Shown one piece after another: positions 12,674 through 34,600 of a stretch of DNA of 64,000 bases. The translations under genes and the position numbers were made by a program. Location of the stretch: NCBI GenBank assembly GCA_035710265.1, contig DASTDR010000331.1:2750-66749 (forward strand). The letters run 5' to 3'. The notes beneath the pieces were generated by a model. It searched no databases. It was not told the DNA's origin and saw only the letters and a program-made list of their open reading frames with translations. This DNA comes from Gemmatimonadales bacterium. Its GTDB lineage: Bacteria > Gemmatimonadota > Gemmatimonadetes > Gemmatimonadales > GWC2-71-9. Every line of letters begins with the position of its first letter. The stretch's first letter is position 1.

Positions 12674-12773
12674 GCAGGAAACTTACGGTGGGGGACGAGG
12701 GTGGCGCTACGCATTATGACCTGTTGGGCGCGCACGCTTGCCCCCTCGAAGCGGTGCGCCATCTTCCCCTGAC

Positions 12774-13553
12774 ATGCGGACCTACCATGACCTGAAAGAC
12801 CCTGACCGCTCTGGTCTTCCCCAGCAGATCGCGGCGCAGCGGCAGCGGGTAAGCGATCGGTTGGCCGGCGTCCGGGAGATCGTGGCCGTCATGAGCGGGA
12901 AGGGCGGGGTGGGCAAGAGCTACGTGACGGCCCATCTGGCCCGGGCGCTGGCGCGGGGTGGGCAGGCGACGGGGGTGCTCGATGCCGACCTGAACGGGCC
13001 CACCATTCCCCGGATGCTCGACGTGCCCACCGCGGTGCGGGTCTCCGCCGGTCAGTGGGTCGAGCCCGTGCTCGGGGCCGATGGCGTTCGCTGCATCTCG
13101 ATGGCGCTGGTTCTGGAGAACGGCGCCCCGCTGTCGTTTCGGGGTCCGGTGGCCGAGTCCTTCGTGTGGCGCGGAGCGATGGAAGCCGCGGCGCTGCGGG
13201 AGTTTCTCGGGGACGTCGCCTGGGGGCCGCTCGACATCCTGCTGCTCGATCTCCCGCCCGGCGTGCAGCGCTACGTGGAGCTGTGCGACATCCTCGGCGC
13301 CGCGCCGCCGGTGCTTACGGTGACGATTCCGACGCCCGAGTCGCGCGACGCCGTGCGGCGCGCGATGCGTGCCGCGGTGGAACGGGGATCTCAGCTGCTC
13401 GGCATCGTCGACAACATGGTGGATGGCCACTACCAGGGAACCGCCGCGAACGATCTGGCGGCAGAGTTCGCGACGCAGGTGCTCGCGCGCGTGCCGTGGA
13501 ACCCCTCGCCCGAGGTCTGGGACGCGTTGGGAAAGCGCATGGCGCACTCATGA
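12774..13553 (+). CDS. mrp: Mrp/NBP35/ApbC-family Fe-S cluster carrier ATPase
   Basis: Deviant Walker A motif VMSGKGGVGKS. The ATG at 12774 is preferred over the track start at 12738. Its stop overlaps the next start (ATGA at 13550-13553). Confidence 0.88.
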   Translation: MRTYHDLKDPDRSGLPQQIAAQRQRVSDRLAGVREIVAVMSGKGGVGKSYVTAHLARALARGGQATGVLDADLNGPTIPRMLDVPTAVRVSAGQWVEPVLGADGVRCISMALVLENGAPLSFRGPVAESFVWRGAMEAAALREFLGDVAWGPLDILLLDLPPGVQRYVELCDILGAAPPVLTVTIPTPESRDAVRRAMRAAVERGSQLLGIVDNMVDGHYQGTAANDLAAEFATQVLARVPWNPSPEVWDALGKRMAHS

Positions 13554-13975
13554 AGTTCCTGTGCGTTGAATGCGACCAACAGATGGCATTCGGGGAGCGC
13601 CAGCTTCCCGGCGACGGCACGCTCGCCGCGACGTTCAAGTGTCCCAAGTGCGGGCGCGTGGTCGCGATGCTGACGAATCCGATGGAGACGCAGCTCGTGT
13701 CCTCACTCGGCGTGGAAATCGGCGGCCGCACCGTGCCGGCCGAGCCGTTTGAGATGATCAACTCGATGGTGACGACGGGCGGGCGGGCCGACGGGCTGAC
13801 GGGCGGCCCATCCTGGTCCGCGGAAGCGCAGGAGCGTCTGACGCGCGTCCCAAGCTTCGTGCGCGGCATGGTGAAGAAGATCTATGCGGACTACGCGAAG
13901 GAACGCGGCATCACCGAAATCACGCCCGCCGTCATGGACACGGCGCGTTCGGAGTTGGGGTTGGAGGGAATGTGA
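13550..13975 (+). CDS. zinc-ribbon protein with a C-terminal PCP_red-like (ChlB/BchB C-terminal-like) domain
   Basis: 141 aa. The zinc ribbon is CVEC...CPKC. The C-terminal segment SWSAEAQERLTRVPSFVRGMVKKIYADYAKERGITEITPAVMDTARSE matches the W..eAe..L..iPfFVRg.v....E.fA.e.G...It signature of the protochlorophyllide reductase B-subunit C-terminal domain. It is coupled on both sides by ATGA and GTGA overlaps. Confidence 0.8.
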   Translation: MKFLCVECDQQMAFGERQLPGDGTLAATFKCPKCGRVVAMLTNPMETQLVSSLGVEIGGRTVPAEPFEMINSMVTTGGRADGLTGGPSWSAEAQERLTRVPSFVRGMVKKIYADYAKERGITEITPAVMDTARSELGLEGM

Positions 13976-16900
13976 AGCTGTTGCTGATGCTGCTTCTGGT
14001 TGCGCAGGGCAAGCCGGCGCCACCACGACGTACCGCGCTGAACCTGTTCGCGCACCCGGGTGCGGTCCTCGAAGCGAATCGGGTCATTTGCGGTCTCGAC
14101 AACGTGGGCCAGTTATGCGCCTCGTTCGCGTCCTCGCCGATCGGCGGCGGCGCGTTCTGGCCCAAGGGCACGCCGGACCAATACATCTTCAACTCGGGCC
14201 TTCAGATGGCCGCCCTGATTCCGGCCGGTGCAGGCTTCGCGTGGGCGGGCGATACGATCGGCGCGTTCTTCTTCGATCCGCGCGGTGATCAGAGCCACGG
14301 CTCCCCCCGCTCGGACGTGTTCAATTCACGAGACAGCGCCGATGCAGTCAATTGGCCCAATGGCGCCGTGATCCGCGACGCGACGACATTCGACGCGCGA
14401 CTGATCGGGCGAAATTTCGCGTCCGAACAGGACCTGTGGATGCGCTACTGGGAAGGATCTCCGCACTTGATCGGCGGTCGCCCGCACCCGATGGGCGTGC
14501 TGGTCGATCAACGTCTGCTCGCGTGGAATTATCCGACCGGTAACCAGGACGTCTTCTACGTGGTCGCTACGTTGTACAACGTGACTGCTCGCACTGCCGG
14601 AGTGTATGCGAATCCTACCATCCCTCCAGAGCTCCAATCCGAGGTCGCTGCCGCGGGGCGCGAATTCCAGGACAGCGCCGAGCAGGCATTCGCGCTAAGC
14701 ATCCCCGATGGCGGCTACGCGCTCGACAGCATGTACGTGCAGCTCGGCATGGATCACGACATCGCCGTTTTTAACCACAACTACGGAACGGCGAGTGTGC
14801 CGTTTGGGATCGGAATCGGGTATACCGGCACGTTTCTCCCCGAGGTGGGCTGGGTCCTCCCGCCGGACCCCTTCGGCGCGCCCCCGTTTGCCGCGGCCCC
14901 CGGATTAGTCGGCACCACGTTCCTGAGGAGCCCGGCGCCGTTCGCGATGTTCACGAACACGACCGGCGGTGGGTCGTTTCCGGACCCGGTCGGCGTCGCG
15001 CTGTTGTGGCGACGGATGTCGGGGAATCTGCTTCCCACAGACACGCAGTGTACGTTTGCCGATCCCGCCGTCGCGCGCGCCCGCCACGTGTGCTTCCTCG
15101 TACAGGTGCAGATCGACAGCCGCTACCAGATGTCCACCGGGCCGTTCAGTCTCGCGCCAGGTGAGGCCAAGACGCTCGTGATGGCCTACATCTTCGCGCC
15201 GCCGCTCGACACCGCCACTGCCTATGTGGGCGGCGATCTGAAGCCGGAGATCCCGTTCACGGGAGACTCGATCGCGCTCGACACCACGAAGATTCGCGCG
15301 ATCGAGCGCGTGGCAGGGTGGCGCACCCAGAGCGACCTCTCCGGCAACGGGGCGATCGAAGCGAACGAGGTCATCGCCGCTCGGCGATCGCTGCTGCACA
15401 AGGCGCAGGTCGCTCAGGCGATCGTGGACGCGAAGTTCCTGATGCCGCAGCCGCCCGATACGCCGGAATTCTTCCTGATCCCCGGCGACAACCAGGTCAC
15501 GATCGTGTGGCAACCGAGCGCCTCAGAAGCAAGTGGCGATCCGTACTTCGCGCTCGCGTCCGACCGCAGCTCGGCGCTGTATGATCCCAACTACCGGCAG
15601 TTCGACGTGGAGGGGTACCGGATCTATCGCGGCACCGATCCGCGTTCGCTCACACTGCTCGCGCAGTTCGATCACGACAACACGTCGTTCGTCGACTACA
15701 CCGGCGCGGTGGCTTATCCCGGCCAGTGCGCGCCCGAGCTGGGGGTCGTCGCCGACTGTCCGGCTGCATTCCCGCCCACGCCCGACACCACGGTCTCGGT
15801 AAGCCAACCGGTGTTTCGCCGCATCGTTCAAGTCCCAGAGGGCGGCCGGATCGTCTCGAGTAACGGTCTCGTCACCACGGTCACCGCCGACACGTTTCCC
15901 GGACACGGATTCGAGCCGCCGTTCGAAACCGGCGTACCCTTCGCGTTCACCGATTCCACTGCGGTGAATTCGTTTCGCTACTACTACGCGGTGACGGTGT
16001 ACGACTTCAACTCGATCAGATCGGGACCGTCGTCGTTCGAGTCACCGCGGTTCACCAAGCTCATCACGCCACGTGCGTCGTCGGGGCAGGAAACCGCGGG
16101 AATGGTGCAAGCCATGCGCTTGTTGGGAGGCGACGGTTCGACGCTTGACTCGGCCATGTCGCTCCCGGCCATCGACCCGGCCACGGGGGTCTTTTCCGGT
16201 CCGATGCCGCCCACCGACGGCCTGGCCCTCGAGTTCACCACCTTCATCCCCGAGCTCCTGGCGAGCGGGAACATCACGGTCACGATCGATTCGATCGCCA
16301 CCGGAATGGCGGTGCTCGACGTGCTGCCCGGCGCCGAGCGTCCGGCCCTGTATTTTCTCACCTCGGTGAGCGCCGGCCTGACCTCGCATCTTACGCTGCC
16401 GCTGCAGATGCGCTCGCCATTCTCCGGCTTTGACGAAGCCACTGCACAGCTGCGGTTCGGGGCGGCGCTGGTTGACTCTGCACAGGCCGCACGTTTCGGT
16501 GCTGCACCCGTAACCCAGCTCGCCGCTCAGGTCACGCTGCGAACACCCAATGCGCTCCGGCTCACCAACTGGGGCCGGGGGGACGCAAACGCAATCCCGC
16601 CGAATTCGGCATTCAACGGGCCGAGGTGGTGGGTGGGCGCCGGCAACGAGAACACCGCGAATCCGAACGGCGGCGTGTGCGCCCCGTCTACCGGCTTCTG
16701 TGCGAACACGTCGCGCGTCCCGAACATCGCGCGCAGTGCGGGGGCGATCTCCGGCGTCACGATCTTCCACGTGCAGTCGTACAACACGATTCCCAATACG
16801 CCGGGGCGCATCGTCGAAGCGGCTCTGGCCACGGTGACGCGCGCGGCCGATTTCAAGGTGTTCTGGGGCACGGCCGGGGTCGTCGACTCGGTCATCGACC

Positions 16901-17742
16901 TGACGCACCGGGTCCGGGTGCCATTCAGTACCCAGGCAGATCCGTCATGGGGCATTCTCACCGAAGCATCGTTCGCGGGAGTCACCGAGGCGCTGACCGG
17001 TGACACGAAAAACACCTTGCTCACCTGGTCGGATCTCTTCTGCGTCGAGCCTCTGCCGGTCTACACGCAGCAATGCGGCGGAGCGGCACAGACGCCGGCC
17101 GCCCTACAGAACACGGCCACGCTCGGCGCGATCGCGATCCGGGACACGGCCTCGAGCTATGCCGGCACGGCCGCGGCCGGCTACACGGCAACCGGCAATG
17201 GCTTCATCTTCTACCTGAACGGCCACTTCTTCCTGATGCAGATGACATCGCTCCCCGCCGCGGGAACGGTCTGGAATGCCCGCTTCTATGCCGGCACCGT
17301 GACCGGCTCGGCGGCGCAGGGGAACTTCGCGTTCGTCCCGGCGGTACGGCCACCGAATGTGCCGGGCCTGCGCGCCCAGATCAGCTTCCAAGGGTCGGAG
17401 CTGAATGCGGTGGCCACGACCGATTCCATGCTCGACAAGATCCACACCGTGCCCGATCCCTTCTATTTGATGAGCGGATTCGAGGTGTCGCCCGACACGC
17501 TGCAGCTCAAGTTCGTGCATCTGCCCGCCATGGCGATCGTGCGCATCTATTCGCTGTACGGCATCCTCGTCAACGTGCTCACCAACAACGATCCCACCGG
17601 CGGCGGGGAGCTCACCTGGGACTTGAAGAGCCGCTCCGGCAAACAGGTCGCCTCGGGCGTGTACTTCTACCACGTCGAAACGATGGATCACAAACGCCGC
17701 GTTGGGCGGTTCACCATCGTGTCGGGCAAGCGCAATCAGTGA
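13972..17742 (+). CDS. very large secreted or cell-surface protein of unknown function with an FN3-like segment and a FlgD-Ig/T9SS-type C-terminal domain
   Basis: 1256 aa with a GTG start and a short signal peptide (KLLLMLLLVAQG). There is an FN3-like stretch (NQVTIVWQPS...EGYRIYRG...YYYAVTVYD). The C-terminal ~90 aa (..VRIYSLYGILVNVL...GELTWDLKSRSGKQVASGVYFYHVE..) are typical of FlgD-Ig or type-IX sorting tails. Confidence 0.85.
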   Translation: MKLLLMLLLVAQGKPAPPRRTALNLFAHPGAVLEANRVICGLDNVGQLCASFASSPIGGGAFWPKGTPDQYIFNSGLQMAALIPAGAGFAWAGDTIGAFFFDPRGDQSHGSPRSDVFNSRDSADAVNWPNGAVIRDATTFDARLIGRNFASEQDLWMRYWEGSPHLIGGRPHPMGVLVDQRLLAWNYPTGNQDVFYVVATLYNVTARTAGVYANPTIPPELQSEVAAAGREFQDSAEQAFALSIPDGGYALDSMYVQLGMDHDIAVFNHNYGTASVPFGIGIGYTGTFLPEVGWVLPPDPFGAPPFAAAPGLVGTTFLRSPAPFAMFTNTTGGGSFPDPVGVALLWRRMSGNLLPTDTQCTFADPAVARARHVCFLVQVQIDSRYQMSTGPFSLAPGEAKTLVMAYIFAPPLDTATAYVGGDLKPEIPFTGDSIALDTTKIRAIERVAGWRTQSDLSGNGAIEANEVIAARRSLLHKAQVAQAIVDAKFLMPQPPDTPEFFLIPGDNQVTIVWQPSASEASGDPYFALASDRSSALYDPNYRQFDVEGYRIYRGTDPRSLTLLAQFDHDNTSFVDYTGAVAYPGQCAPELGVVADCPAAFPPTPDTTVSVSQPVFRRIVQVPEGGRIVSSNGLVTTVTADTFPGHGFEPPFETGVPFAFTDSTAVNSFRYYYAVTVYDFNSIRSGPSSFESPRFTKLITPRASSGQETAGMVQAMRLLGGDGSTLDSAMSLPAIDPATGVFSGPMPPTDGLALEFTTFIPELLASGNITVTIDSIATGMAVLDVLPGAERPALYFLTSVSAGLTSHLTLPLQMRSPFSGFDEATAQLRFGAALVDSAQAARFGAAPVTQLAAQVTLRTPNALRLTNWGRGDANAIPPNSAFNGPRWWVGAGNENTANPNGGVCAPSTGFCANTSRVPNIARSAGAISGVTIFHVQSYNTIPNTPGRIVEAALATVTRAADFKVFWGTAGVVDSVIDLTHRVRVPFSTQADPSWGILTEASFAGVTEALTGDTKNTLLTWSDLFCVEPLPVYTQQCGGAAQTPAALQNTATLGAIAIRDTASSYAGTAAAGYTATGNGFIFYLNGHFFLMQMTSLPAAGTVWNARFYAGTVTGSAAQGNFAFVPAVRPPNVPGLRAQISFQGSELNAVATTDSMLDKIHTVPDPFYLMSGFEVSPDTLQLKFVHLPAMAIVRIYSLYGILVNVLTNNDPTGGGELTWDLKSRSGKQVASGVYFYHVETMDHKRRVGRFTIVSGKRNQ

Positions 17743-17990
17743 GCGACTTCGAAGAGCGCCACGTCGGCGATCTCCGGGTCCGGATCGATCGGACCCTGTG
17801 CGTCGGATTCGGCGACTGCATCACGGAAGCGGGCGAGGCGTTCGTCCTGGACGACGACGGCGTGGCGGTGTTCGTGCGGCCCGAGGCGGTCGAGCGCGAA
17901 CGATTGTTGCGCGCGTGCGACGCCTGCCCGGTGGATGCGATTACGGTTTGGAACGAAGCCGGGAGCCAAATCGTCCCGTCGACCTTGTGA
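17739..17990 (+). CDS. small single-cluster ferredoxin (CVGxGxC...CP type)
   Basis: 83 aa with a GTG start that overlaps the upstream stop (GTGA, 17739-17742). The motif is RTLCVGFGDCITEAGEAF...ACDACPVDAI. Confidence 0.8.
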   Translation: MSDFEERHVGDLRVRIDRTLCVGFGDCITEAGEAFVLDDDGVAVFVRPEAVERERLLRACDACPVDAITVWNEAGSQIVPSTL

Positions 17991-18104: not shown

Positions 18105-20078
18105 GTGTACCGCGAGATTTTCGTTCCCGTCGACAACTCGCAGCACTCCGACTGGGCCGTGGATCGGGCGATCGAGATGTGCCGGAAGACAGGCGGCCGG
18201 ATCACCGGTAACCATGTCTACGCCGCCCGCCTCCACGATGTGCGCTTCCGCCAGCTCGAGACCGGCCTCCCCGCCCAGTTCCAGACGCCCGAAGAAATCA
18301 AAAAACAGCGCAAAATCCACGACAAGCTGATCGAGAAAGGGCTGCAGCTGATCGCCGACAGCTTTCTGGATCAGCTCGGCAAGCGGTGTGAAGCGGCGGG
18401 CGTCGCGCTGACGCGGCAGCTGCTCGAAGGCATCAACTACGAAGAAATCGTCAACGAAGTGAACCGCGGCGCCGGCAGGCTGCCGGGATTGATCGGCTTC
18501 GATCCCAACCGCGCGGCCGGCTACGACGGCGGCGACAAGGTCCGCAGCGACGTCAAGCTCGGTGAAAACGGTCGGCTCGTCGCCGAAGACGAAGACGCGG
18601 CAGCACGGCTGGTCGGCTCGTCGGGACGGCAATACGACCTGCTCGCGCTCGGCGCGCACGGGCTGGGACGGCAGCAGTTCTCCCAGCTCGGTGGTGTAGT
18701 GGCTCGCGTATTGCGCGGCGTCGAGAAAGATGTGTTGATCGTCCGCGATCAGCAGCCGCTCACCGGCGGGCGCTTCATGGTCTGCGTCGACGGCTCGTCC
18801 TACAGCTACAAGGCCATGAACGCAGCGCTCGAGCTGGCCCACGAATTCGGCGCGTCGCTGTACGTGTGCAGCGCGTTCGACGTCGAATACCATCACGTCG
18901 TCTTCCACAACATCAAGGACGTGCTGTCGTACCAAGCCTCGAAGGTCTTCAAGTTCGAGGAGCAGGAAGAGCTGCACAACAACATCATCGACAAAGGCCT
19001 GCTCAAGCTGTGCCAGGCCAACTTGAAGCGCGCGGAAGTCATGGCGCAGCAGTTCCCCGACGTGCCGATCAAGACGCAGATCCTGATCGGCAAGCCGTTC
19101 CAGGTGATTCTCCAGTGGGCGGAGGAAATCAAGCCGACGCTCATGGTCATCGGCCGCCATGGGGCCCACCGCATCGAAGGGACCGATCTCGGCTCGCAGG
19201 CCGAAAACCTCCTGCGCGCCGCTCCCTGCTCCCTGCTCCTCGTCGGCGTTGTCGGTGTTCGTCCGGAAGACATTCCCTGGATCGAAGAAGATGGCCAGGC
19301 CGGGCTGCCGTGGGCGCCCGAGGCCGAAGTCCGGATCCTGCGCGTGCCGCCGTTCGCGCAGGGTATCGCGCGGCGCGCGGTCGAAGAATACGTGCTCGAG
19401 AAAGTGGGCAACGCCGGCCCTCCACCGACCGTGACCAACAAGTGGCTCGATGAAGCGATCCAGAAGCTGCTCCCGACGCACATGCAGCTCATCATGGGCA
19501 TCGGCAGCGCCGAGGAAATCGCCCTGGCGGAGGTGAAAGCCACGGAGCAGATGAAGGCGACGAAGGTCCAGGGTCACGATGCCGACCCCGAGCCGGCAAT
19601 GGCGGAAGTCGAGACCAAATGTCCAGTTACGGGCGCGGTCTCGAAGCGCCCCCGCGTGGCGAGCGACCCGATCGTCTGGACCGAAGAGGGGTGGGAGCGT
19701 CTCCAGCTCGTCCCGTTGATCGCGCGGCCGCTCGCGCGCAACACCGTCGAGCGGTTTGCGCGCAATCACGGCATCTGGCGCGTCACCACGGCCGTCATGG
19801 ACGACAACAAGCAGGCCATGATCGAGGCCGACGAGTTCGACATCGACACGATGATGGTGATGTTCACGGAGCTCCGCGCCAAACAGATCCGGGCTGAAGC
19901 CGAGGGACAGGATGCGCTCTCACCCGAGATGCGCGCGTTCATCGAGGAAGCAAAGGCGCAGGGCATCACGCGCTGTCCCATCCGCGACATTGAAGCCAAG
20001 ATGGAGAAGTGCCCGGTCGACATGAAGGCCGTGACGCCCGAAGAAGCGAAACGCGCAGTCGAGAAGCTGCTGCAGTGA
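18105..20078 (+). CDS. tandem universal-stress-protein domains fused to two PCP_red-like domains and a Cys-containing C-terminal tail
   Basis: 657 aa with a GTG start after GGGGAGG. It has two UspA-like domains (IFVPVDNSQHS...; FMVCVDGSSYS...LMVIGRHGAHRIEG..LGSQAENLL). The PCP_red-like copies are at about 19308-19470 (PWAPEAEVRILRVPPFAQGIARRAVEEYV) and 19674-19820 (VWTEEGWERLQLVPLIARPLARNTVERFARNHGIWRVT). The tail reads ..ITRCPIRDIEAKMEKCPV... Confidence 0.85.
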   Translation: MYREIFVPVDNSQHSDWAVDRAIEMCRKTGGRITGNHVYAARLHDVRFRQLETGLPAQFQTPEEIKKQRKIHDKLIEKGLQLIADSFLDQLGKRCEAAGVALTRQLLEGINYEEIVNEVNRGAGRLPGLIGFDPNRAAGYDGGDKVRSDVKLGENGRLVAEDEDAAARLVGSSGRQYDLLALGAHGLGRQQFSQLGGVVARVLRGVEKDVLIVRDQQPLTGGRFMVCVDGSSYSYKAMNAALELAHEFGASLYVCSAFDVEYHHVVFHNIKDVLSYQASKVFKFEEQEELHNNIIDKGLLKLCQANLKRAEVMAQQFPDVPIKTQILIGKPFQVILQWAEEIKPTLMVIGRHGAHRIEGTDLGSQAENLLRAAPCSLLLVGVVGVRPEDIPWIEEDGQAGLPWAPEAEVRILRVPPFAQGIARRAVEEYVLEKVGNAGPPPTVTNKWLDEAIQKLLPTHMQLIMGIGSAEEIALAEVKATEQMKATKVQGHDADPEPAMAEVETKCPVTGAVSKRPRVASDPIVWTEEGWERLQLVPLIARPLARNTVERFARNHGIWRVTTAVMDDNKQAMIEADEFDIDTMMVMFTELRAKQIRAEAEGQDALSPEMRAFIEEAKAQGITRCPIRDIEAKMEKCPVDMKAVTPEEAKRAVEKLLQ

Positions 20079-21346
20079 GCTTCGTCCCACACGTCGTCGC
20101 ATGGAATCTCACGCGGCGCTGTAACCTGGAGTGCGCCCACTGCTATATCGCGGCGGGGCCGCATGAGAGTGCGACCTCCGAACTCGACACGTCCGAGTGC
20201 CTGCGCATCGTGGACGAGCTGCTCGCCGTGAACCCCGCGCCGATGTTGATCCTCTCCGGCGGCGAGCCGCTGCTGCGCCAGGATCTTACCGAGATCGCCG
20301 CGTACGCGTCGCAGCGCGGTGCGACGGTCGTGGTGGGCACGAACGGCACGCTGCTCTCGGACGAGCGCATCGCCGGGCTCAAGGCGGCGGGCGTGCGCGG
20401 CGTCGCGGTCTCAATCGATTCGCTGCGCCCGACGTACCACGACAACTTCCGGCACGGCAAAGGGTCGCTCGACGACACGGTCAGGGCACTGGGTCGCCTG
20501 CGCGCGCAGCAGCTCGATTTCGTCATCCAGACGACAGCGACCAAAGGCAATCGCGCCGAGCTCGAGCGCATCGCGCAATGGTCGGCGGAGCTGGGCGCCG
20601 TCGCGTTCAACTGCTATTTCCTGGTCGCGACGGGACGGGGCGCCGGCATGTCGGATCTGTCGCCCGCCGAGTACGAAGCGGTGCTCGCCGATCTCGCCAG
20701 ATGGCAACGGGATTACCGCGGCACCATGATGGTGCGCGCCAAGTGCGCGCCGCATTTCATGCGTCATGTCCATCTCCTGGATCCTGACTCCCAGATCCTG
20801 AATTACCAGACCCGCTGCCCGTGCGGCACTCAGTACTGCCGGATCACGCCCGACGGCAAGCTCACGCCGTGCCCGTATCTGCCCGAGGTGGCGGGCGATC
20901 TGCGCACGCACAGCTTCGGGGAGATCTGGCGCTCGTCCCCGCTGTTCCAGCGGATCCGCGAGGGGACACTGGGCGGCAAGTGCGGCCGATGCGAGTACCA
21001 GAAGCTGTGCGGTGGCTGCCGCGCGCGCGCGTTCGCGCTCGAGGGCGACGTGCTCGCCGCGGATCCATCATGCAGTTACGAGCCGCAAGGGCTGGAGGTG
21101 ATTCAGCCGAAGAGCGTGAGCTACGGCAGCGAGTTCACGCCTGCGCTGACCTGGTCGGCGGCGGCGCGCACGCGGCTCGAGCGGATCCCGTCGTTCGTGC
21201 GCGGGGTCGTCGCCAAACGCGTCGAAGACTGGGCACGCGAGCGCGGCGTGCAGGAAATCACGCCGGAGCTGCTCGGGGAAATCCGCAACGCAATGCCGAT
21301 CGATTTCTCGAAACGCAAACCATTCTTTGTGTCCGATGACCGATAA
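20075..21346 (+). CDS. radical SAM / SPASM-domain enzyme (NirJ/AhbC/AhbD-like) with a C-terminal PCP_red-like domain
   Basis: The GTG start overlaps the upstream stop (GTGA). The radical SAM cluster motif is NLTRRCNLECAHCY, with ILSGGEPLLRQD. The SPASM Cys-rich region is ..RCPCG..C..GKCGRCEYQKLCGGCRARAF... The C-terminal segment TWSAAARTRLERIPSFVRGVVAKRVEDWARERGVQEITPELL lies at 21149-21298. Confidence 0.88.
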   Translation: MSFVPHVVAWNLTRRCNLECAHCYIAAGPHESATSELDTSECLRIVDELLAVNPAPMLILSGGEPLLRQDLTEIAAYASQRGATVVVGTNGTLLSDERIAGLKAAGVRGVAVSIDSLRPTYHDNFRHGKGSLDDTVRALGRLRAQQLDFVIQTTATKGNRAELERIAQWSAELGAVAFNCYFLVATGRGAGMSDLSPAEYEAVLADLARWQRDYRGTMMVRAKCAPHFMRHVHLLDPDSQILNYQTRCPCGTQYCRITPDGKLTPCPYLPEVAGDLRTHSFGEIWRSSPLFQRIREGTLGGKCGRCEYQKLCGGCRARAFALEGDVLAADPSCSYEPQGLEVIQPKSVSYGSEFTPALTWSAAARTRLERIPSFVRGVVAKRVEDWARERGVQEITPELLGEIRNAMPIDFSKRKPFFVSDDR

Positions 21347-21349
21347 CCG

Positions 21350-23059
21350 ATGACCGAGCATCTGCTCCTTCAGGCGGCCGCCGACACCGTGGGCGCCTAC
21401 CGCGACTTCCCGGTGATCGGCAGCCGGGCCGCGATCTGGATCGCGGCGGAAATCCACCTGATGTTCGCGGCGTTCGTGCTGGGCGTGCCGATGTTCGCGG
21501 TGGTCGCGGAGGCGATCGGCATCTTCGGCAAGGACCAGCGCTACGATCGCCTGTCCAAGGAATTCACCCGGCTGCTGCTGATCGCCTACAGCGCGACGGC
21601 CATCTGGGGGGCGGTGCTCGTATTCCTGCTGTCCACCCTCTACCCCAAGTTCTGGGCCTATCTGACGGCCATCTTCGGAACATCGATGTGGGTGTACGTC
21701 TCGATCTTTTTCTTCGAGTCGTTCACGCTGTACCTGTATTACTACGGCTGGGACCGCTGGAAGTATGGGACATCCAAGATCGTGCATTGGTGCCTCGGCA
21801 TTCTGCTGAACGTGTGGGGCACCATCGTCATGTTCATCGCGGACGGCTGGCTCACGTACATGATGTCGCCGCCGCGCGACATCACGCCCACGACCGCGCC
21901 GGCAAGTGTCCGCTTCTGGGAAGCGTTCATGAACCACACGTGGATGCCGATCAACATCCACCGCCTCATCGGCAACGTGGTGTTCGGCGGCGCGATCGTG
22001 GGCGCGTACGCGAGTTACCGCTTCCTCGCGTCCCGCAGCGAGGAAGAGCGCGCGCACTACGACTGGATGGGCTACGTCGGCAACTTCATCGCGATTTCGG
22101 CGCTGATCGTGCTGCCGTTCGCCGGCTACTGGCTGGGGCGTGAGATCTACATGTACGACCAGTCGATGGGCATTACGATGATGGGCGGCTTCATGAGCTG
22201 GCTGTGGGTCATTCAAGCCTTCCTCATCGCGGTGCTGTTCCTGGCCGGCAACTACTATCTGTGGGTCGGGATGGGCCGTATTCCCGGCGCCGAGCGGTTC
22301 CGGCCGTACACGAAGTGGCTGCTCGCCGTGCTCGTAATCGGCGCGATCGTGTGGGGCACGCCGCACACCATGATCGCCGACTCGCGCGAGCTCGCGGCGA
22401 TGGGCGGCTCGCACCATCCCTTCCTCGGTGTCCTGGGCGTCATGAGCGCCAAGAACACCGCGGTGAACCTGATGATCCTCGCGACGTTCCTCTCCTTCCT
22501 CCTGTACCGGCGCGCCAACATCCGCCCCGTCGTGCCGTGGGCCCAGACCGGGACGCGGATTCAGGGCGCGATGTTCGCGATCGCGGCCGCGATCGTGCTG
22601 TTCTACGGCATCCGCGGCTACTTCGTCGAAGCGATCGTGCGCATCGGCTATTCGGTTTATCAAGTCGGCGCCGTGCTCGCGTGCATCGTGTTCGTCACCG
22701 TGATCGACGTGCTCATGGCGCGCGGCGCGCAGTCGCTGGGGGCGATCCAATGGGGCAAGATGCCGCCGCGCTCGCAGTACGCGCTCTTCATCCTGGCCGT
22801 CACCTTCACCTGGCTCATGGGCCTGATGGGGTTCGCGCGCAGCGGGATTCGCCAGCACTGGCACGTGTGGCAAGTCCTGCCGGACACGTCGCAGTACGCG
22901 GCCACGCCCGCGCTCGGGTATGCGTCGATCATGATCAGCGCCTGCGTGCTGATCTTCCTGGCGCTGGTCGGATTCATCTTCTGGCTCGGAGGGCTCGCCG
23001 AGAAGTCCACTTTCGTGCCCGCGGTCAGCACCGTGGAGGCCCCGCATGTGGGCCATTAA
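21350..23059 (+). CDS. cytochrome bd-like membrane protein (CydA superfamily, no CydB partner)
   Basis: 569 aa and polytopic. CydA hallmarks are a TM1 His (AAEIHLMFAAF), FFFESFTLYLYYYGW, NVWGTIVMFIADGWLTYMMSPP and a TM5 His (PINIHRLIGNVVFGG). It has extra C-terminal helices. No cydB or cydX follows. Confidence 0.85.
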   Translation: MTEHLLLQAAADTVGAYRDFPVIGSRAAIWIAAEIHLMFAAFVLGVPMFAVVAEAIGIFGKDQRYDRLSKEFTRLLLIAYSATAIWGAVLVFLLSTLYPKFWAYLTAIFGTSMWVYVSIFFFESFTLYLYYYGWDRWKYGTSKIVHWCLGILLNVWGTIVMFIADGWLTYMMSPPRDITPTTAPASVRFWEAFMNHTWMPINIHRLIGNVVFGGAIVGAYASYRFLASRSEEERAHYDWMGYVGNFIAISALIVLPFAGYWLGREIYMYDQSMGITMMGGFMSWLWVIQAFLIAVLFLAGNYYLWVGMGRIPGAERFRPYTKWLLAVLVIGAIVWGTPHTMIADSRELAAMGGSHHPFLGVLGVMSAKNTAVNLMILATFLSFLLYRRANIRPVVPWAQTGTRIQGAMFAIAAAIVLFYGIRGYFVEAIVRIGYSVYQVGAVLACIVFVTVIDVLMARGAQSLGAIQWGKMPPRSQYALFILAVTFTWLMGLMGFARSGIRQHWHVWQVLPDTSQYAATPALGYASIMISACVLIFLALVGFIFWLGGLAEKSTFVPAVSTVEAPHVGH

Positions 23060-23843
23060 CCTGCGGATCTTCGGCGTCGTGCTCGGCACGCTGGCGCTCT
23101 ATACACTGATCGCGAACAAGATCCCGCAGATGCAGTCGGAGGTGCCGCGCGCGCTCGCGCTCGGCGCCAACGTCACGCCGGAGCAGCTCGTGGCTGCCGG
23201 GGAGCAGCTCTATCAGGGCGCGGGCGGCTGCACCGCCTGTCACGGCCTCGGCACGCGCGCACCCAATCTCCTGACCGATGAAAAAGGACAGGGCCAGATC
23301 GGCGCGCGCTGTGCCAACCGAGAGCGCGGCAAGAATTGCAAGACGTACCTCTATGAGTCGCTGGCCAGCCCGGGGACGTTCGTGGTGACCGGTTATGAGC
23401 CGATCATGCCGGACATGAGCCGCACCTTGTCTCCGCAGCAGCTCTGGGCGCTGGTCGCGTTCCTCGAGTCGCAGGGCGGGACCGTGGATGTGCAGGCCTC
23501 CGATATCCCCGCGGCAGCCTCGAGCGATGGTGGAGGGTCGGGAGGTTCTGGAGGTTCTCGAGGAATTGCCGGAGGCAGTACGGACGCCATGGCGATCATT
23601 CGGGCCGCGGGCTGTCTCGGCTGCCACAAGGTGGGCACCGAGGGCGGCGCGATCGGGCCGGACCTGACACGGATCGGCGGCCGGCTCTCGCCGTCGCTCA
23701 TGCGGGAGGCGATCCTCGCGCCCGACGCGCGCATCGCGCGCGGGTATGAGCAGTTCAAAGGCGTGATGCCCAAAACCTTCGGCGATCAGCTGACGGCGGC
23801 GCAGCTCGAGTCGCTGGTGCAATTCCTCGTGAGTCGTCGATGA
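23046..23843 (+). CDS. membrane-anchored dihaem c-type cytochrome
   Basis: 265 aa with an N-terminal TM helix (IFGVVLGTLALYTLIA). It has two CxxCH motifs (CTACH and CLGCH) separated by a Gly/Ser linker. It overlaps the upstream gene by 14 nt. Confidence 0.88.
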   Translation: MWAINLRIFGVVLGTLALYTLIANKIPQMQSEVPRALALGANVTPEQLVAAGEQLYQGAGGCTACHGLGTRAPNLLTDEKGQGQIGARCANRERGKNCKTYLYESLASPGTFVVTGYEPIMPDMSRTLSPQQLWALVAFLESQGGTVDVQASDIPAAASSDGGGSGGSGGSRGIAGGSTDAMAIIRAAGCLGCHKVGTEGGAIGPDLTRIGGRLSPSLMREAILAPDARIARGYEQFKGVMPKTFGDQLTAAQLESLVQFLVSRR

Positions 23844-24619
23844 GGAACTACATCCGTCATCCGTTCTGGCAGGCGGTCGGGCTGCTCGCGATCGCGTACC
23901 TGGTCATCGCATTCCTCATCCCGCTGCTGCCCGGCAGCGCCGTCGTGCCCAAGAGCGTCGTGCTGCAGTACATGGCGACGGTGCTCGTCGGCGTGCTGAT
24001 CTGGGTGAGCGACGACGAAGCCCGCTGGACGACGTTCAAAGAGCCGCTCCAGGATGTGCTCGTGCAGCCGCGGCTCAAGGTCGTGCGGACCGCGCTGCTC
24101 GCGGCGGTCACGCTGATCGTCGGCTGCCTCACCTACGGCCAGGTGCGCGCCAGCGTGACCGCGCCGCCGTCGTTGCGCTCGATCCACCCCGCGCCGCCCT
24201 CGCAGATCACGTTCCGCGGTAAGGCCATCACGCTGGTGGGACTCGAGAACCCGCTGCGCCGCCAAGGGGGGGGAGATCTCGCGACGCACGTCGCCGAAGG
24301 ACAACGGATCTACTACAAGAACTGCGTGCCCTGCCACGGTGATCATCTCGATGGGCAGGGACCGTATGCTCCAGGATTGAATCCGCTCCCCGCCAACTTC
24401 CAGGACAATGGTACGATCGCGCAGCTCACCGAGAGCTTCGTGTTCTGGCGGGTCGCGAAGGGTGGGCCGGGGCTGCCGCGCGAAGGCGCGCCCTGGAATT
24501 CGGCGATGCCGGCGTGGGAGGATTTCCTCACCGAGAACGAAATCTGGGCGGTCGTGCTCTTCCTGTACGAACAAACGGGCTGGAAGCCGAGGACGTGGGA
24601 AGCGGCCAGTCATGATTAG
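23840..24619 (+). CDS. polytopic membrane monohaem c-type cytochrome
   Basis: 259 aa with about three N-terminal TM helices followed by YYKNCVPCHGDH. It is joined to the upstream gene by an ATGA overlap. Confidence 0.85.
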   Translation: MRNYIRHPFWQAVGLLAIAYLVIAFLIPLLPGSAVVPKSVVLQYMATVLVGVLIWVSDDEARWTTFKEPLQDVLVQPRLKVVRTALLAAVTLIVGCLTYGQVRASVTAPPSLRSIHPAPPSQITFRGKAITLVGLENPLRRQGGGDLATHVAEGQRIYYKNCVPCHGDHLDGQGPYAPGLNPLPANFQDNGTIAQLTESFVFWRVAKGGPGLPREGAPWNSAMPAWEDFLTENEIWAVVLFLYEQTGWKPRTWEAASHD

Positions 24620-26144
24620 CGCGCTGCTCTTGGTGCTGGTCCTGACGCAGGACACGACGGCAGGGAAGGTCGTGTACCAGAAGTGGTGCGCGGGCTGCCA
24701 CGGCGATCAGGGTGCCGGCGACGGCGTCGCGGCCAGGTACATGATCCCGCCGCCGCGCGACTTCACGGGCGCGATCTACCAGATCCGCTCGACCGCAAGC
24801 GGCAACCTGCCCACGGATGCCGATCTGATGCGCGCTATAGATGAAGGGCTGCATGGCACCGCCATGCCGGGATGGAGGAACGCGCTGTCCGATCGCGAAC
24901 GGCGTGACGTGGTGGCCTACATCAAGTCGTTCTCGACGTTCTTTGCCGACACGACGTTGCGGCCCCAGGCGCTCGAGCTCGGCGGAGAGCCGAGCGGCGG
25001 CACCGGTGACGAAGCGCTCAGGGTGGGACGGCAATTCTACGATTCCATCGGCTGTGCCAAATGTCATGGCGATCTGGGCCGCGGCGACGGCCCCTCGTCT
25101 CCGACGCTGAAGGACGACGCCGGGCATCCGATCTTTGCGGCCGATCTGCATCAGAACTGGCTGTTCAACGGCGGCGGCACCGCAAGCGACATTTATCATC
25201 GCCTGCGGACCGGCCTCGACGGCACGCCGATGCCGTCGTTCAGCGATCTGCTCGAGCAAAAGTTCCTCACGGAGACGGAGTTGTGGCGCGTCGCGCAGTA
25301 CGTGCGCAGCCTCTCCCCCGCTGAGCCGCCGGCGGTGCGGGATGTGATCCGCGCGCCGCTGGTCGACCGCGCGTTGCCCCATGCGCCTGACGATTCGGCC
25401 TGGGCATCGGTCGACGCATACTGGTTCCCGCTCGTGGGTCAGGTGATCCGCAAAAGCCGCTGGTTCGCACCGGCGGTCACCGGAGTCTGGGTGAAGGCGG
25501 TGCACACCGCGGATTCCCTCGCCCTGCACATCGCCTGGGACGACCGCTCGGAGAGTCCCGACACGGCGTGGCTCGACCATGTGGGCCGCGTAATGGCCGC
25601 CCTGGAAAGCGATGAAGCGGATCAGCCTGGTCTTTGGCCTGATCAGATCGCCGTCCAGTTCCCGGTGACGATTCCCACGGGCATGGAGCGTCCCTACTTC
25701 CTGATGGGCAGCTCCAGTGCTCCCGTCTACCAGTGGCGCTGGACCAGTACCGCTCGAACCGCGGCCGTTGCCGGCCTGGCACGCGGGCTGGAGCGTTTCG
25801 ATCCGATATCCAATGCCGGGGTCGGCGCGCAGGCCGTCTATGACCGCGGTCAGTGGCGCGTCGTCTTCACCCGCGCACTTGCTTCGTCCGATACCGCAAC
25901 ACAGCTTCCGTTCCGGACCGGCCGTGCCATTCCCGTGGCATTCTTCGCCTGGGATGGGTCCAACGGAGAGCACGGCACGCGGATGGCCGTCAGTACCTGG
26001 TATTTCCTTGCACTCGAAGAGCCCGTGCCGGCCCGTGTGTTCATCTCGCCGGTGCTCGCTATGATGCTCACGCTCGGCCTGGGCATGCTGGTCGTCTGGC
26101 GTGCGCAACAAAAGACTTCATTCCGTGGGAGGAGGCAGCAATGA
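24612..26144 (+). CDS. dihaem c-type cytochrome fused to an EB_dh/DOMON-like haem-binding domain, with a C-terminal TM anchor
   Basis: The internal ATG at 24612 gives the signal MISALLLVLVLTQ. The CxxCH motifs are CAGCH and CAKCH. The C-terminal half (..WFPLVGQ..VKAVHTADSLALHIAWDD..DQIAVQFPV..PYFLMG..VYQWRW..QWRVVFTRAL..VAFFAWDGSNGE..) resembles the ethylbenzene-dehydrogenase gamma-type haem domain. The terminal TM helix is VFISPVLAMMLTLGLGMLVVW. Confidence 0.8.
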   Translation: MISALLLVLVLTQDTTAGKVVYQKWCAGCHGDQGAGDGVAARYMIPPPRDFTGAIYQIRSTASGNLPTDADLMRAIDEGLHGTAMPGWRNALSDRERRDVVAYIKSFSTFFADTTLRPQALELGGEPSGGTGDEALRVGRQFYDSIGCAKCHGDLGRGDGPSSPTLKDDAGHPIFAADLHQNWLFNGGGTASDIYHRLRTGLDGTPMPSFSDLLEQKFLTETELWRVAQYVRSLSPAEPPAVRDVIRAPLVDRALPHAPDDSAWASVDAYWFPLVGQVIRKSRWFAPAVTGVWVKAVHTADSLALHIAWDDRSESPDTAWLDHVGRVMAALESDEADQPGLWPDQIAVQFPVTIPTGMERPYFLMGSSSAPVYQWRWTSTARTAAVAGLARGLERFDPISNAGVGAQAVYDRGQWRVVFTRALASSDTATQLPFRTGRAIPVAFFAWDGSNGEHGTRMAVSTWYFLALEEPVPARVFISPVLAMMLTLGLGMLVVWRAQQKTSFRGRRQQ

Positions 26145-31622: not shown

Positions 31623-32699
31623 ATGCCCGAGTCGAAATCCGAAAAACGTCAGGTCGTTCGCTACGCCTTCTACAAGCTCGACCCCGCGTGGCGTCGCCTC
31701 ACCTCGGATCGGCAGGCGTCCGCCAAGCTCGAGTTCGGCGAAACGCTCGAGCGCTATCACGGCCGGCTGCTGCTGCGTCCGTACGGGCTCGTTGGCATTC
31801 GGGGCGATACCGACTTTCTGCTGTGGCAGGTGGCCGAGGATCTGGACGCGCTGGTCGAGCTCCAGACAGCCCTGAATCGCACCGACCTCGGCGCGTATGT
31901 GTCGATCCCGTACAGCTACCTCGCCATGACGCGCCGCTCCATTTACGAATTCCCGGCAGATCCGAATCACGAGCAGCGGCTGGTCATCCAGCCGAGCGCT
32001 GCCAAGTACCTGTTCGTATATCCGTTCATCAAGACGCGCCCCTGGTACTCGCTGCCGAAGCCCGAACGCCAGCGGATGATGGACGAGCACGTTCGCATCG
32101 GGCGGAAGTACCCCACGATCCGGCTGAACACGACGTACTCGTACGGACTCGACGATCAGGAGTTCATCGTCGCGTTCGAGGGCGACAATCCGGGCCTATT
32201 CCTGGATCTGGTGATGGAGCTGCGCGAGAGCGAGGCCTCGGCCTACACGTTGCGCGACACCCCGACGTTCACGTGCGTGCAGATGTCGCTCTGGGACATG
32301 CTGGACACGCTGGGGGGAGCCGGAGCCGCGGAGCACGTCAGCCGCCGGCCGCCGCGCGAGGACGGGTTTACGCCCGTCGGATCGCTTTCGGATCTCCCCC
32401 CGGGCTCGGCAAAACGGGTGTATGCCGCGAACGACGCGGTGGCGCTGTTCAACGTCAACGGCACGGTGTACGCGGTCGCCAACCGCTGCACGCACGCGCG
32501 CGCCAGCCTGTCCGAAGGCACCGTGGATTCAAGCCGCTGTGCGGTGACATGCCCGTGGCACGAAGGGGTGTTCTCGCTGGAGACAGGCCAGGTGTTGGGT
32601 GGGCCGCCGGTGCACGCGGTCGCCACGTACCAGGTGAAGATCGACGGCGACACGATTCTCATCGCTCACGCAGAGGCGCAAGGTCTCACGGTTTCTTAA
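31623..32699 (+). CDS. hemQ: coprohaem decarboxylase (HemQ/ChdC, chlorite-dismutase family) fused to a C-terminal Rieske [2Fe-2S] domain
   Basis: 358 aa. The N-terminal ~250 aa are Cld/HemQ-like (..YAFYKLDPAWRRL.., ..YLFVYPFIKTRPWYSLP..ERQRMMDEH..IRLNTTYSYGLDDQEFIVAFE..). The C-terminal ~100 aa carry C-T-H-x18-C-P-W-H (CTHARASLSEGTVDSSRCAVTCPWH). Confidence 0.85.
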   Translation: MPESKSEKRQVVRYAFYKLDPAWRRLTSDRQASAKLEFGETLERYHGRLLLRPYGLVGIRGDTDFLLWQVAEDLDALVELQTALNRTDLGAYVSIPYSYLAMTRRSIYEFPADPNHEQRLVIQPSAAKYLFVYPFIKTRPWYSLPKPERQRMMDEHVRIGRKYPTIRLNTTYSYGLDDQEFIVAFEGDNPGLFLDLVMELRESEASAYTLRDTPTFTCVQMSLWDMLDTLGGAGAAEHVSRRPPREDGFTPVGSLSDLPPGSAKRVYAANDAVALFNVNGTVYAVANRCTHARASLSEGTVDSSRCAVTCPWHEGVFSLETGQVLGGPPVHAVATYQVKIDGDTILIAHAEAQGLTVS

Positions 32700-32742
32700 G
32701 GCGTGCCGCCGGGAGCGCACCGACGTCACACCCGTCTGGTTC

Positions 32743-33696
32743 ATGCGGCAGGCCGGCCGCTACATGCCGCAGTACCGCAAACTTCGCAAACGCCATTCCA
32801 TCCTCGATCTCTGTCATCGTCCGGAGCTGGCGGCCGCGGTAACGCTTCAGCCCGTCGAGCGCCTGGGCGTCGATGCCGCGATCATCTTTGCCGACATCCT
32901 GCTCCCGTTCGAGCCGCTGCGGCTCGGACTGCGGTTCGAAGCCGGTGCAGGGCCGAAGATCGACCGCCCGATTCGTGATGCGGCGGATGTCGAGCGGCTC
33001 CCGGCATTCAGCATCGACGCCGAGTTGGGCTATGTGTGTGACGCGATCCGGCTCGCGCGCGGCGCCTTGCCCGACGATGTGCCGCTCATCGGGTTTGCCG
33101 GCGCGCCGTTTACCCTTGCGAGCTACGCGATCGAAGGCGGCGCGAGCCGCACGTTCACGAAGACCAAGCAGTTCATGTACCAGGCACCTGACGCCTGGCA
33201 CTCGCTGCTGAGCAAGCTCGCCGACGTTGTCGGCAACTACCTCGCCGCGCAGGCACGTGCTGGAGCGCAGGCGCTGCAGTTGTTCGACAGCTGGGCCGGC
33301 TGTCTCTCACCCGACGACTACCGCGCGTATGCGGCGCCGCACAGCAAACGCGCCCTGACGCTCGCCGCCGGTGCAGGGGTTCCGCTCATCCATTTCGGGA
33401 CGGGCACGGCCACATTCCTCGAGGATTTCGCCGGCGCGGGCGGGGATGTGATCAGCGTCGACTGGCGGATTCCGCTCGATGCCGCATGGGCCCGGATCGG
33501 CCGGCGGGCGATTCAGGGCAATCTCGAGCCTGCGGTGCTGCTCGCGCCCGCCGCGGAACGCGATCGCCGGGTGCGCGACATTCTCAAACGTGCCGGCGGG
33601 AAGCCGGGCCACATTTTCAACCTGGGTCATGGCGTGCTGCCGGAGACGGATGTCGACGCGGTCCGCGCTGTAGTCGATCTCGTGCATGACGGCTGA
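32743..33696 (+). CDS. hemE: uroporphyrinogen decarboxylase (minimal ORF; the conserved N-terminus continues upstream to about 32689 without a start codon)
   Basis: The protein begins MRQAGRYMPQYRKLR... and is HemE-like throughout. In-frame upstream codons read RFLKACRRERTDVTPVWF, which is the canonical HemE N-terminus. Confidence 0.9.
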   Translation: MRQAGRYMPQYRKLRKRHSILDLCHRPELAAAVTLQPVERLGVDAAIIFADILLPFEPLRLGLRFEAGAGPKIDRPIRDAADVERLPAFSIDAELGYVCDAIRLARGALPDDVPLIGFAGAPFTLASYAIEGGASRTFTKTKQFMYQAPDAWHSLLSKLADVVGNYLAAQARAGAQALQLFDSWAGCLSPDDYRAYAAPHSKRALTLAAGAGVPLIHFGTGTATFLEDFAGAGGDVISVDWRIPLDAAWARIGRRAIQGNLEPAVLLAPAAERDRRVRDILKRAGGKPGHIFNLGHGVLPETDVDAVRAVVDLVHDG

Positions 33697-34600
33697 GCGA
33701 ATTGCCGTTCTGGTGATGGCGTATGGCGGGCCGGGCAACATCGCCGAGGTTGACGCCTATCTGATGGATGTGCGCGGCGGCCGGCCTACCAAACCGGAGC
33801 TCGTCGAAGAAATCCGCGCCCGCTACGCGCGGATCGGTGGGCGGTCGCCGATCCTCGAGCTCACGCGCGCGCAAGCCGCGGGGATCGGCCGAGTGCTCGG
33901 CCCCGGGTTCGAAACATTTGTCGGCATGCGCCACTGGCGGCCGTATATCCAGGAGACCGTGCGCGCCATCGAGGCGCAGGGCTTTACGCGCGTCGTCGGC
34001 GTCGCGATGGCACCGCACTACTCGAACATGTCCGTCGGGGCTTACGAGAAGAAGTTGCTGCAGGCCGCCGATGGACGGTTGGACGTGACACTCGTGCGCA
34101 GGTGGTGGCAACAGCCGCAGTTTCGGGATGCCACAGCGAACCGCATCCGCCAGGCCCTGTCCCGCTTTCCCGAAGGCACCACGCCTCAAGTCATCTTCAC
34201 CGCCCACAGCTTGCCCGAAAAGATCGTCGCGTCCGCCGACCCGTACCCGGACGAGCTCAAGGCGAGCGCGGCGGAGGTGGCGGCACGGGCAGGCCTGGAG
34301 GAATGGCGCTTCGCCTATCAAAGCGCGGGTGCGACGGGCGAGCCGTGGCTCGGCCCCGATGCGGAGGAAGTGATTACAGCGCTCGCTCGGGCAGGGGAAA
34401 CTGCCGTGCTGCTCGTCCCGATCGGCTTCGTGTGCGATCACGTCGAGATCCTGTACGACATCGACGTCGAGTATCAGGACCTCGCCAAGCGCCTCGGCAT
34501 CCAGCTCGAGCGGACTACATCGCTCAACGACGACCCTGGACTCGTCGCGGCGGTGGCGGCGGCAGTCCGCGGCGCAGCCCGGCAACGAGGCTGGCTCTGA
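33686..34600 (+). CDS. hemH: ferrochelatase (probably coproporphyrin ferrochelatase, given the hemQ/hemY context)
   Basis: 304 aa with motifs ..VLVMAYGGP.., ..FTAHSLP.. and ..VPIGFVCDHVEILYDID... It overlaps the end of hemE by 11 nt. Confidence 0.92.
   Translation: MTAERIAVLVMAYGGPGNIAEVDAYLMDVRGGRPTKPELVEEIRARYARIGGRSPILELTRAQAAGIGRVLGPGFETFVGMRHWRPYIQETVRAIEAQGFTRVVGVAMAPHYSNMSVGAYEKKLLQAADGRLDVTLVRRWWQQPQFRDATANRIRQALSRFPEGTTPQVIFTAHSLPEKIVASADPYPDELKASAAEVAARAGLEEWRFAYQSAGATGEPWLGPDAEEVITALARAGETAVLLVPIGFVCDHVEILYDIDVEYQDLAKRLGIQLERTTSLNDDPGLVAAVAAAVRGAARQRGWL

Follow-up and report, generated by a model that had tools for sequence, protein, structure and literature searches.

The stretch of DNA analysed here (the window) comprises 64,000 nucleotides of a Gemmatimonadales bacterium (NCBI GenBank assembly GCA_035710265.1, contig DASTDR010000331.1, positions 2,750 to 66,749 of the forward strand), whose genome is 89.5% complete with 6% contamination. 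At window positions 20075–21346 it contains a gene for a radical S-adenosylmethionine (SAM) enzyme with a SPASM domain and a C-terminal PCP_red module, placed directly before a gene for a CydA-like membrane protein annotated as cytochrome bd-like. The enzyme belongs to a distinct, well-supported clade that is sister to the haem b synthases AhbD and NirJ2, and in the two phyla surveyed its distribution follows that of the bd-like gene. The features of the gene are as follows.

20075–21346, + strand: radical SAM/SPASM/PCP_red enzyme of the AhbD/NirJ2-related PCP_red-tailed clade, 423 amino acids (translation, Pfam and NCBIfam scans, tree, AlphaFold2)
20120–20146, + strand: CNLECAHCY, the CX3CX2C radical SAM [4Fe-4S] site (C16, C20, C23), residues 16–24 of the translation
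20744–21073, + strand: full SPASM motif of eight cysteines, C224 to C333, for two predicted auxiliary [4Fe-4S] clusters (spacing, conservation, published AhbD motif)
21152–21280, + strand: C-terminal PCP_red (PF08369) module, a tethered three-helix unit (Pfam, PDB 2xdq_B and 2l09, model)

The GTG start codon at 20075 overlaps the stop of the upstream gene by 4 nt (caGTGAgc), and 3 nt separate the TAA stop (21344–21346) from the ATG at 21350 with which the CydA-like gene begins, a gap already noted in a preliminary description made from the sequence. Since homologues of 423–426 amino acids cover 99–100% of the query, the comparison supports the start at 20075 over an upstream GTG at 20009. The Pfam scan placed Radical_SAM at residues 11–168 (E = 1.3e-25), SPASM at residues 248–307 (E = 6.8e-10) and PCP_red (PF08369) at residues 360–402 (E = 4.5e-12, exceeding the Pfam cut-off); together with Fer4_12 these were the only Pfam domains in the enzyme, and no recognition domain was detected. 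The CNLECAHCY cluster, the CGGCRARAF string at the end of the SPASM-type cysteine region and the PCP_red-like module of the preliminary description were all confirmed, and the cysteine region proved to be a complete eight-cysteine motif. No small precursor open reading frame (ORF) was found beside the enzyme, the 4-nt overlap upstream and the 3-nt gap downstream leaving no room for one.

Among the NCBIfam models the enzyme was matched best by AhbD (TIGR04545; 303.8 bits, E = 1.8e-90; curated equivalog cut-off 500, not reached) and second by NirJ2 (TIGR04055; 300.2 bits, E = 2.3e-89; cut-off 500, not reached). TIGR04053 scored 265 bits, NirJ (TIGR04051) 184 bits against a cut-off of 515 and AhbC (TIGR04546) 167 bits against a cut-off of 650, and the peptide maturases MftC (148 bits) and PqqE (119 bits) were lower. 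The enzyme was below the cut-off of every curated NCBIfam family. The earlier view that its nearest well-known relatives act on tetrapyrroles holds for AhbD and NirJ2, whereas NirJ and AhbC, which had been named alongside, are clearly more distant.

For phylogenetic placement, 150 relatives were obtained from a search of 1.84 billion cluster representatives, and a maximum-likelihood tree was calculated by a quick method from 85 full-length cores, representatives at 50% identity. Scored with a local hidden Markov model, many of the 150 relatives had a C-terminal PCP_red tail, made up of one to four copies of the domain. In the tree the tailed proteins made up one 25-row clade (Shimodaira–Hasegawa-like approximate likelihood ratio test, SH-aLRT, 99), which includes the enzyme and lies outside the AhbD-like clade; the tail was found in 22 of the 25 rows inside and in none of the 60 rows outside. 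A neighbouring clade of 42 rows is AhbD-like by NCBIfam (343–498 bits) and contains a TIGR04053 subclade, and another of 16 rows is NirJ2-like, one of its proteins (P0191) exceeding the cut-off with 533 bits. The placement against known families that had been proposed as a check thus put the enzyme in a sister clade of the AhbD- and NirJ2-like clades, a widespread subfamily within the AhbD/NirJ2 group that is still without a name. Orthology with AhbD, NirJ2 or NirJ was ruled out by the scores, which are below every curated cut-off, and by the separate clade. The public annotation of the tailed clade is "radical SAM protein"; the name "AdoMet-dependent heme synthase" for members of this clade is probably wrong. 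A metagenome scan with a basal subclade member (from locus L112) gave five distant relatives and no usable contexts.

The SPASM cysteines of the enzyme are spaced C224-X23-C248-X17-C266-X36-C303-X2-C306-X5-C312-X2-C315-X17-C333, in agreement with the full SPASM motif of M. barkeri AhbD (CX20-33CX17CX36-37CX2CX5CX2CX17-35C), which is of the methanogen/sulfate-reducer type with two auxiliary [4Fe-4S] clusters (PMC10452713). In the 85-representative set the CX3CX2C site (C16, C20, C23) was invariant (85/85), as required of an AhbD-type enzyme, and the eight SPASM cysteines were kept throughout. Every residue conserved in both the AhbD-like and the NirJ2-like clades is retained in the tailed clade, and the sole clade-specific position found was G109, mostly Arg in AhbD-like proteins. 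The enzyme therefore has in common with AhbD (TIGR04545) and Firmicutes NirJ2 (TIGR04055) the CX3CX2C site, the eight-cysteine spacing and the family-wide conserved residues, and differs from both in its PCP_red tail and its obligate Usp partner. The AlphaFold2 model (mean predicted local distance difference test score, pLDDT, 86.8) showed a confident core, a disordered linker at residues 349–355 and then PCP_red helices at residues 362–369, 373–390 and 397–406. By the model and a fold search the SPASM radical SAM fold and its tethered tail of three helices were confirmed, and neither gave an indication of the substrate.

The occurrence of the enzyme and of the bd-like gene was compared in 151 genomes of each of two phyla, which were searched with protein queries at fixed E-value thresholds. 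In Gemmatimonadota full-length orthologues of the enzyme (at least 58% identity) were present in 41 of the 151 genomes, and the bd-like gene was found in exactly the same 41; the patchy presence across genera of one family suggests that the two were repeatedly gained or lost together. In the second phylum (that of genome G151 and of the genome holding locus L084, labelled Deltaproteobacteria or Thermodesulfobacteriota in the sources) the tailed enzyme was found in 10 genomes and the bd-like gene in 11, including all 10, with neither in the other 140. The two genes are on different contigs in at least 6 of these 10 carriers and 3–9 kb apart in the others, and therefore linkage alone does not explain the coupling.

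The four-gene bd-like module was conserved in G151–G154, G201, G211 and G215. It was likewise found, as bd-like protein, cytochrome c, cytochrome c and c-EB_dh protein, in all four enzyme-bearing genomes (labelled Deltaproteobacteria, Nitrosomonadales, Nitrospinota and Candidatus Binatia) that were reached through loci of distant clade members, the module being located elsewhere in the genome. The enzyme and the bd-like gene adjoin each other in the same operon or divergently, in other gene orders, in L107, L108, L112 and L113, and are about 4 kb apart in L106. The suggestion of the preliminary description that the enzyme serves the bd-like complex has thus gained strong comparative support from co-occurrence in two phyla, and the enzyme is probably a dedicated haem-processing helper of the bd-like module and not a general haem-synthesis enzyme. 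This phyletic profile is the main new result. AhbD was already known in coproporphyrin-pathway organisms without other Ahb enzymes (PMC13564367). No searchable paper was found that links bd-like proteins with a radical SAM enzyme or with AhbD. OR-N enzymes have been described as lacking a quinol site and as having other electron-donating partners (Murali, Gennis and Hemp 2021, bioRxiv 10.1101/2021.01.16.426971); the module of a CydA-like protein and cytochromes c downstream of the enzyme fits the description of OR-N operons given there, and the word "radical" is absent from the main text of that preprint.

The genes surrounding the enzyme in the window are the following.

12738–13553, + strand: Mrp/NUBPL-type P-loop Fe-S carrier ATPase, first gene of the cassette (Pfam ParA (NUBPL), E = 1.3e-44)
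13550–13975, + strand: zinc-ribbon (CxxC...CxxC) protein with PCP_red (Pfam PCP_red, E = 1.8e-15; cysteine positions)
13972–17742, + strand: secreted protein of 1256 amino acids (operon order)
17739–17990, + strand: small [4Fe-4S]-type ferredoxin, candidate electron partner (Pfam Fer4_13, Fer4_15; syntenic in Gemmatimonadales loci)
18105–20078, + strand: partner protein with two Usp and two PCP_red domains (Usp-Usp-PCP_red ×2), translationally coupled to the enzyme through the GTGA overlap (Pfam)
21350–23059, + strand: CydA-like "cytochrome bd-like" membrane protein (Pfam Cyt_bd_oxida_I, E = 1.3e-22, N-terminal half only)
23046–23843, + strand: dihaem c cytochrome of the bd-like module (Pfam, NCBIfam)
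23840–24619, + strand: cytochrome c of the bd-like module (Pfam, NCBIfam)
24612–26144, + strand: dihaem c protein fused to an EB_dh haem b domain, of the bd-like module (Pfam, NCBIfam)
after the cytochrome genes and before hemQ-Rieske, + strand: copper protein, then coxBACD (operon order)
31623–35649, + strand: hemQ-Rieske, hemE, hemH and hemY, haem genes of the coproporphyrin pathway (Pfam, NCBIfam)

As far as the contigs reach, the order of the Mrp gene, the zinc-ribbon-PCP_red gene, the ferredoxin gene, the Usp-PCP_red gene, the enzyme, the bd-like gene, the cytochromes and the cox genes was kept in 80 of 80 related Gemmatimonadales loci. The Usp-PCP_red partner is 91–96% identical in the closest 34 Gemmatimonadales loci holding the gene and 75–96% identical over all loci. 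Across phyla no neighbour of the enzyme is more constant than a Usp or Usp-PCP_red gene, which was found paired with it in L084, L086, L090, L091, L092, L093, L106, L108, L111, L112 and L113; in L091, L092 and L111 an Mrp gene followed by a gene for a small PCP_red protein stands beside the cassette. Cys-Pro motifs resembling haem-regulatory motifs were noted in the Usp-PCP_red protein (residues 506, 624 and 636, two of them in the C-terminal tail), and were rejected as a family feature, being absent from distant homologues. The 1256-residue secreted protein (13972–17742) gave no tblastn match at E ≤ 1e-8 over at least 40% of its length in the 80 related loci, and its gene looks like an insertion specific to this genome.

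The PCP_red region, the last 45–50 residues of the enzyme, corresponds to the C-terminal domain (PF08369) of the ChlB/BchB subunit of dark-operative protochlorophyllide oxidoreductase. It matched residues 456–507 of ChlB (2xdq_B, E = 4.5e-7), the extreme C-terminus, and also the stand-alone domain 2l09. The helix of Rhodobacter BchB that contacts protochlorophyllide is formed by residues 398–420 (PMC12022308), and the segment of ChlB matched by PCP_red is a different one. The preliminary description had called the tail a tetrapyrrole-domain module; the PCP_red domain is indeed there, but its match is the ChlB C-terminus and not the substrate-contacting helix. In contrast to ChlB/BchB, the present operon, which is that of a non-phototroph, has PCP_red attached to three other kinds of protein, namely the radical SAM enzyme, the Usp partner and the zinc-ribbon protein. 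A docking role common to these three would agree with the tethering of the module and with its recurrence within a single operon, and judging from the modelled tail such a role would be at least as likely as tetrapyrrole binding.

The window contains, about 10 kb downstream of the enzyme as first described, a hemQ gene (31623–32699) whose product combines Chlor_dismutase and Rieske domains (Pfam). In the genome hemQ, hemH and hemY are single-copy and hemE is also present; at 89.5% completeness it gave no PF17805 match, and so neither AhbA/B- nor NirDLGH-type genes, and the enzyme was its sole AhbC/D-like protein. Because hemQ, hemH and hemY are present, and AhbA/B and other AhbC/D-like genes absent, the normal haem route of this organism is taken to be the coproporphyrin pathway ending in HemQ. 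By the same absences a role in haem d1 synthesis (as NirJ) or in the sirohaem pathway (as AhbC/AhbD) was ruled out. NirJ and AhbC share with the enzyme the radical SAM/SPASM superfamily whose members act on the side chains of iron tetrapyrroles, but match it much more weakly (184 and 167 bits), and decarboxylase genes of the AhbA/B or NirDLGH type that would go with them are absent from the genome.

In the second phylum 134 of the 151 genomes matched the enzyme query at E ≤ 1e-40, and all the matches outside the 10 carriers were tail-less; most of the carriers also hold a tail-less AhbD-like paralogue. In G215 the tailed enzyme and its Usp partner are followed immediately by an AhbD-like gene (L106, 12075–13286) with 49% identity to an AhbD representative that scores close to the cut-off, an adjacency which, judged from the sequences, would imply non-redundant roles. 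Unlike AhbD, the enzyme is without AhbA/B/C partners in its own genome, coexists with HemQ or canonical AhbD and follows the bd-like module. It is not simply the haem b synthase of the cell, and the earlier proposal of a general anaerobic route parallel to the O2/H2O2-dependent HemQ fits these data poorly.

Other haem genes recur next to the tailed enzyme. A HemY-like gene (TIGR00562, 239 bits) is located directly after the enzyme in L087 and L090 and before it in G201, and HemY-like paralogues adjoin it at L107 6416–7864, G158:C12:31648–33006, G270:C82:14089–15447, L087 2583–3986 and L090 7845–9284. The enzyme-adjacent copies of G201, G158 and G270 are 60–61% identical to one another, and each of these genomes carries a second, more ordinary HemY (38–40% identity). 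HemQ-domain genes are enriched in the Gemmatimonadota carriers (31/41 against 9/110 non-carriers). The HemY-like neighbours and the HemQ enrichment, both read from sequence, would be consistent with a coprohaem-type substrate. Full-length orthologues of the HemQ-Rieske fusion were found in 22 of the 151 Gemmatimonadota genomes, 21 of them among the 41 carriers of the enzyme and the bd-like gene.

The favoured explanation, to which we give a probability of about 0.55, is AhbD-type chemistry (oxidative decarboxylation) on a coprohaem-like substrate, dedicated to supplying or maturing the haem of the bd-like complex. The enzyme would act with its Usp-PCP_red partner and, at this locus, also with the Mrp Fe-S carrier, the zinc-ribbon-PCP_red protein and the ferredoxin, which together would form an accessory system of the bd-like module. 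SAM would be cleaved by the reduced radical SAM cluster, and the resulting 5′-deoxyadenosyl radical would take hydrogen from a propionate side chain of a coprohaem-type iron tetrapyrrole. The side chain would then be oxidatively decarboxylated, the electron leaving through the two auxiliary clusters, possibly to the operon ferredoxin. The product may be haem b or a close derivative, with which the bd-like and EB_dh proteins would be supplied for their b-type haem sites.

Several points weigh against this explanation. The putative substrate and product are deduced from homology, and the near-complete retention of AhbD-family conserved residues would suit an ordinary coprohaem decarboxylase as well. 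As the PDB has no AhbD or NirJ structure, every structural neighbour of the enzyme found there is a SPASM enzyme that modifies peptides or proteins (SkfB, PqqE, SuiB, anSME). The literature search gave no demonstration of PCP_red binding a tetrapyrrole or any other ligand. One genome of the second phylum, G250, has the bd-like gene without the enzyme, and the co-occurrence in Gemmatimonadota, where the two genes are adjacent, is partly due to linkage and shared descent, the Fisher P values ignoring phylogeny.

A more specific proposal, which we regard as tentative, is that the cassette (Usp-PCP_red and radical SAM-PCP_red proteins, with optional HemY-like or AhbD paralogues) would form an oxygen-independent coprohaem branch which makes a non-b haem or matures the haem in place, as the specific active-site cofactor of OR-N bd-like oxidases in nitrite oxidisers, manganese oxidisers, Gemmatimonadota and others.

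Somewhat less probable, though to be taken seriously, is an ordinary oxygen-independent coprohaem decarboxylase, that is, an AhbD isozyme making bulk haem b when the H2O2-/O2-dependent HemQ fails and merely travelling with the respiratory genes. The known presence of AhbD in coproporphyrin-pathway organisms (PMC13564367) speaks for it, as do the retention of all the AhbD/NirJ2-wide conserved residues and of the full SPASM motif, the hemY genes adjoining the enzyme in several lineages and the enrichment of HemQ-type, coprohaem-making genomes among the carriers. A further point in its favour is that HemQ, HemF and true HemN were undetected in ten Gemmatimonadota carriers (e.g., G057, G081, G099). 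This absence does not discriminate, since the same three proteins were undetected in 3 of 4 non-carrier controls (G021, G023, G058); on this ground the proposal that genomes without HemQ have no other decarboxylase than the enzyme was rejected. AhbD-like genes too were undetected in these three controls and in the ten carriers, so that in these genomes the last step of haem synthesis is either unaccounted for or due to a HemQ too divergent for the protein query used. Against an isozyme stands the distribution of the enzyme, which tracks the bd-like module and not haem synthesis: 110 of the 151 Gemmatimonadota genomes are without it yet need haem, and in the second, anaerobe-rich phylum with its tail-less AhbD-like genes it occurs only in bd-like genomes, sometimes in one operon with an AhbD-like gene.

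The strict coupling to a haem protein complex, the tethered, docking-like PCP_red module common to the enzyme and two partner proteins, and the nucleotide-binding type of the Usp partner could also be accommodated by a haem chaperone or insertase for the haem b sites of the bd-like and EB_dh proteins, with little or no turnover. The precedent is HemW, a radical SAM protein resembling HemN by which respiratory nitrate reductase is provided with haem, and in the present enzyme, too, a radical SAM fold of haem synthesis would have been taken into the service of one respiratory complex; the analogy is functional only, as HemW belongs to another radical SAM subfamily without SPASM. We consider this improbable: the invariance of the cluster ligands and of the family-wide conserved polar residues across the clade would argue for retained catalysis, and the adjacent extra HemY-like and AhbD-like genes suggest a pathway and not delivery alone. 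Least probable is a protein-modifying SPASM maturase by which one of the subunits of the bd-like complex would be crosslinked or otherwise modified. Although the closest solved folds (SkfB, PqqE, SuiB, anSME) modify peptides or proteins and the enzyme co-occurs with a protein complex and not with a pathway, tetrapyrrole enzymes are far closer in sequence (E about 1e-90 against 1e-43 or worse; AhbD 303.8 bits against 148 for MftC and 119 for PqqE), Pfam detected no recognition domain, the recurrent neighbours are tetrapyrrole enzymes and, unlike with the maturases PqqE, MftC, SkfB, AlbA and anSME of ribosomally synthesised and post-translationally modified peptides (RiPPs) and of other peptides, there is neither an adjacent precursor gene nor room for one, so that the low likelihood given to a RiPP-maturase role in the preliminary description was borne out.

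The bd-like (OR-N) proteins are proposed terminal oxidases of bacteria of environmental importance, among them nitrite-oxidising Nitrospira and Nitrospina relatives, manganese oxidisers and abundant soil Gemmatimonadota, and to our knowledge no such protein has been purified. The presence of the enzyme only together with the bd-like module predicts that heterologous expression of the complex needs the cassette, and the complex may contain an unusual haem.

Further observations concern individual genes and loci. In L112 (2303–15118) the genes for a c-EB_dh cytochrome, a Nar/NXR-like molybdopterin enzyme with its Fe-S subunit and a NarJ-like chaperone are followed in the same string by those for Usp, the tailed enzyme, the bd-like protein, two cytochromes c and an EB_dh protein. 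The hemY gene of the window (34597–35649) codes for 350 amino acids only, and the protoporphyrinogen oxidase models matched it in two stretches, with about 135 positions (approximately 82–219) missing between them. A second hemE, on contig C275 (754–1659) of the same genome, is 56% identical to the hemE of the window and may be a paralogue or a contaminant.

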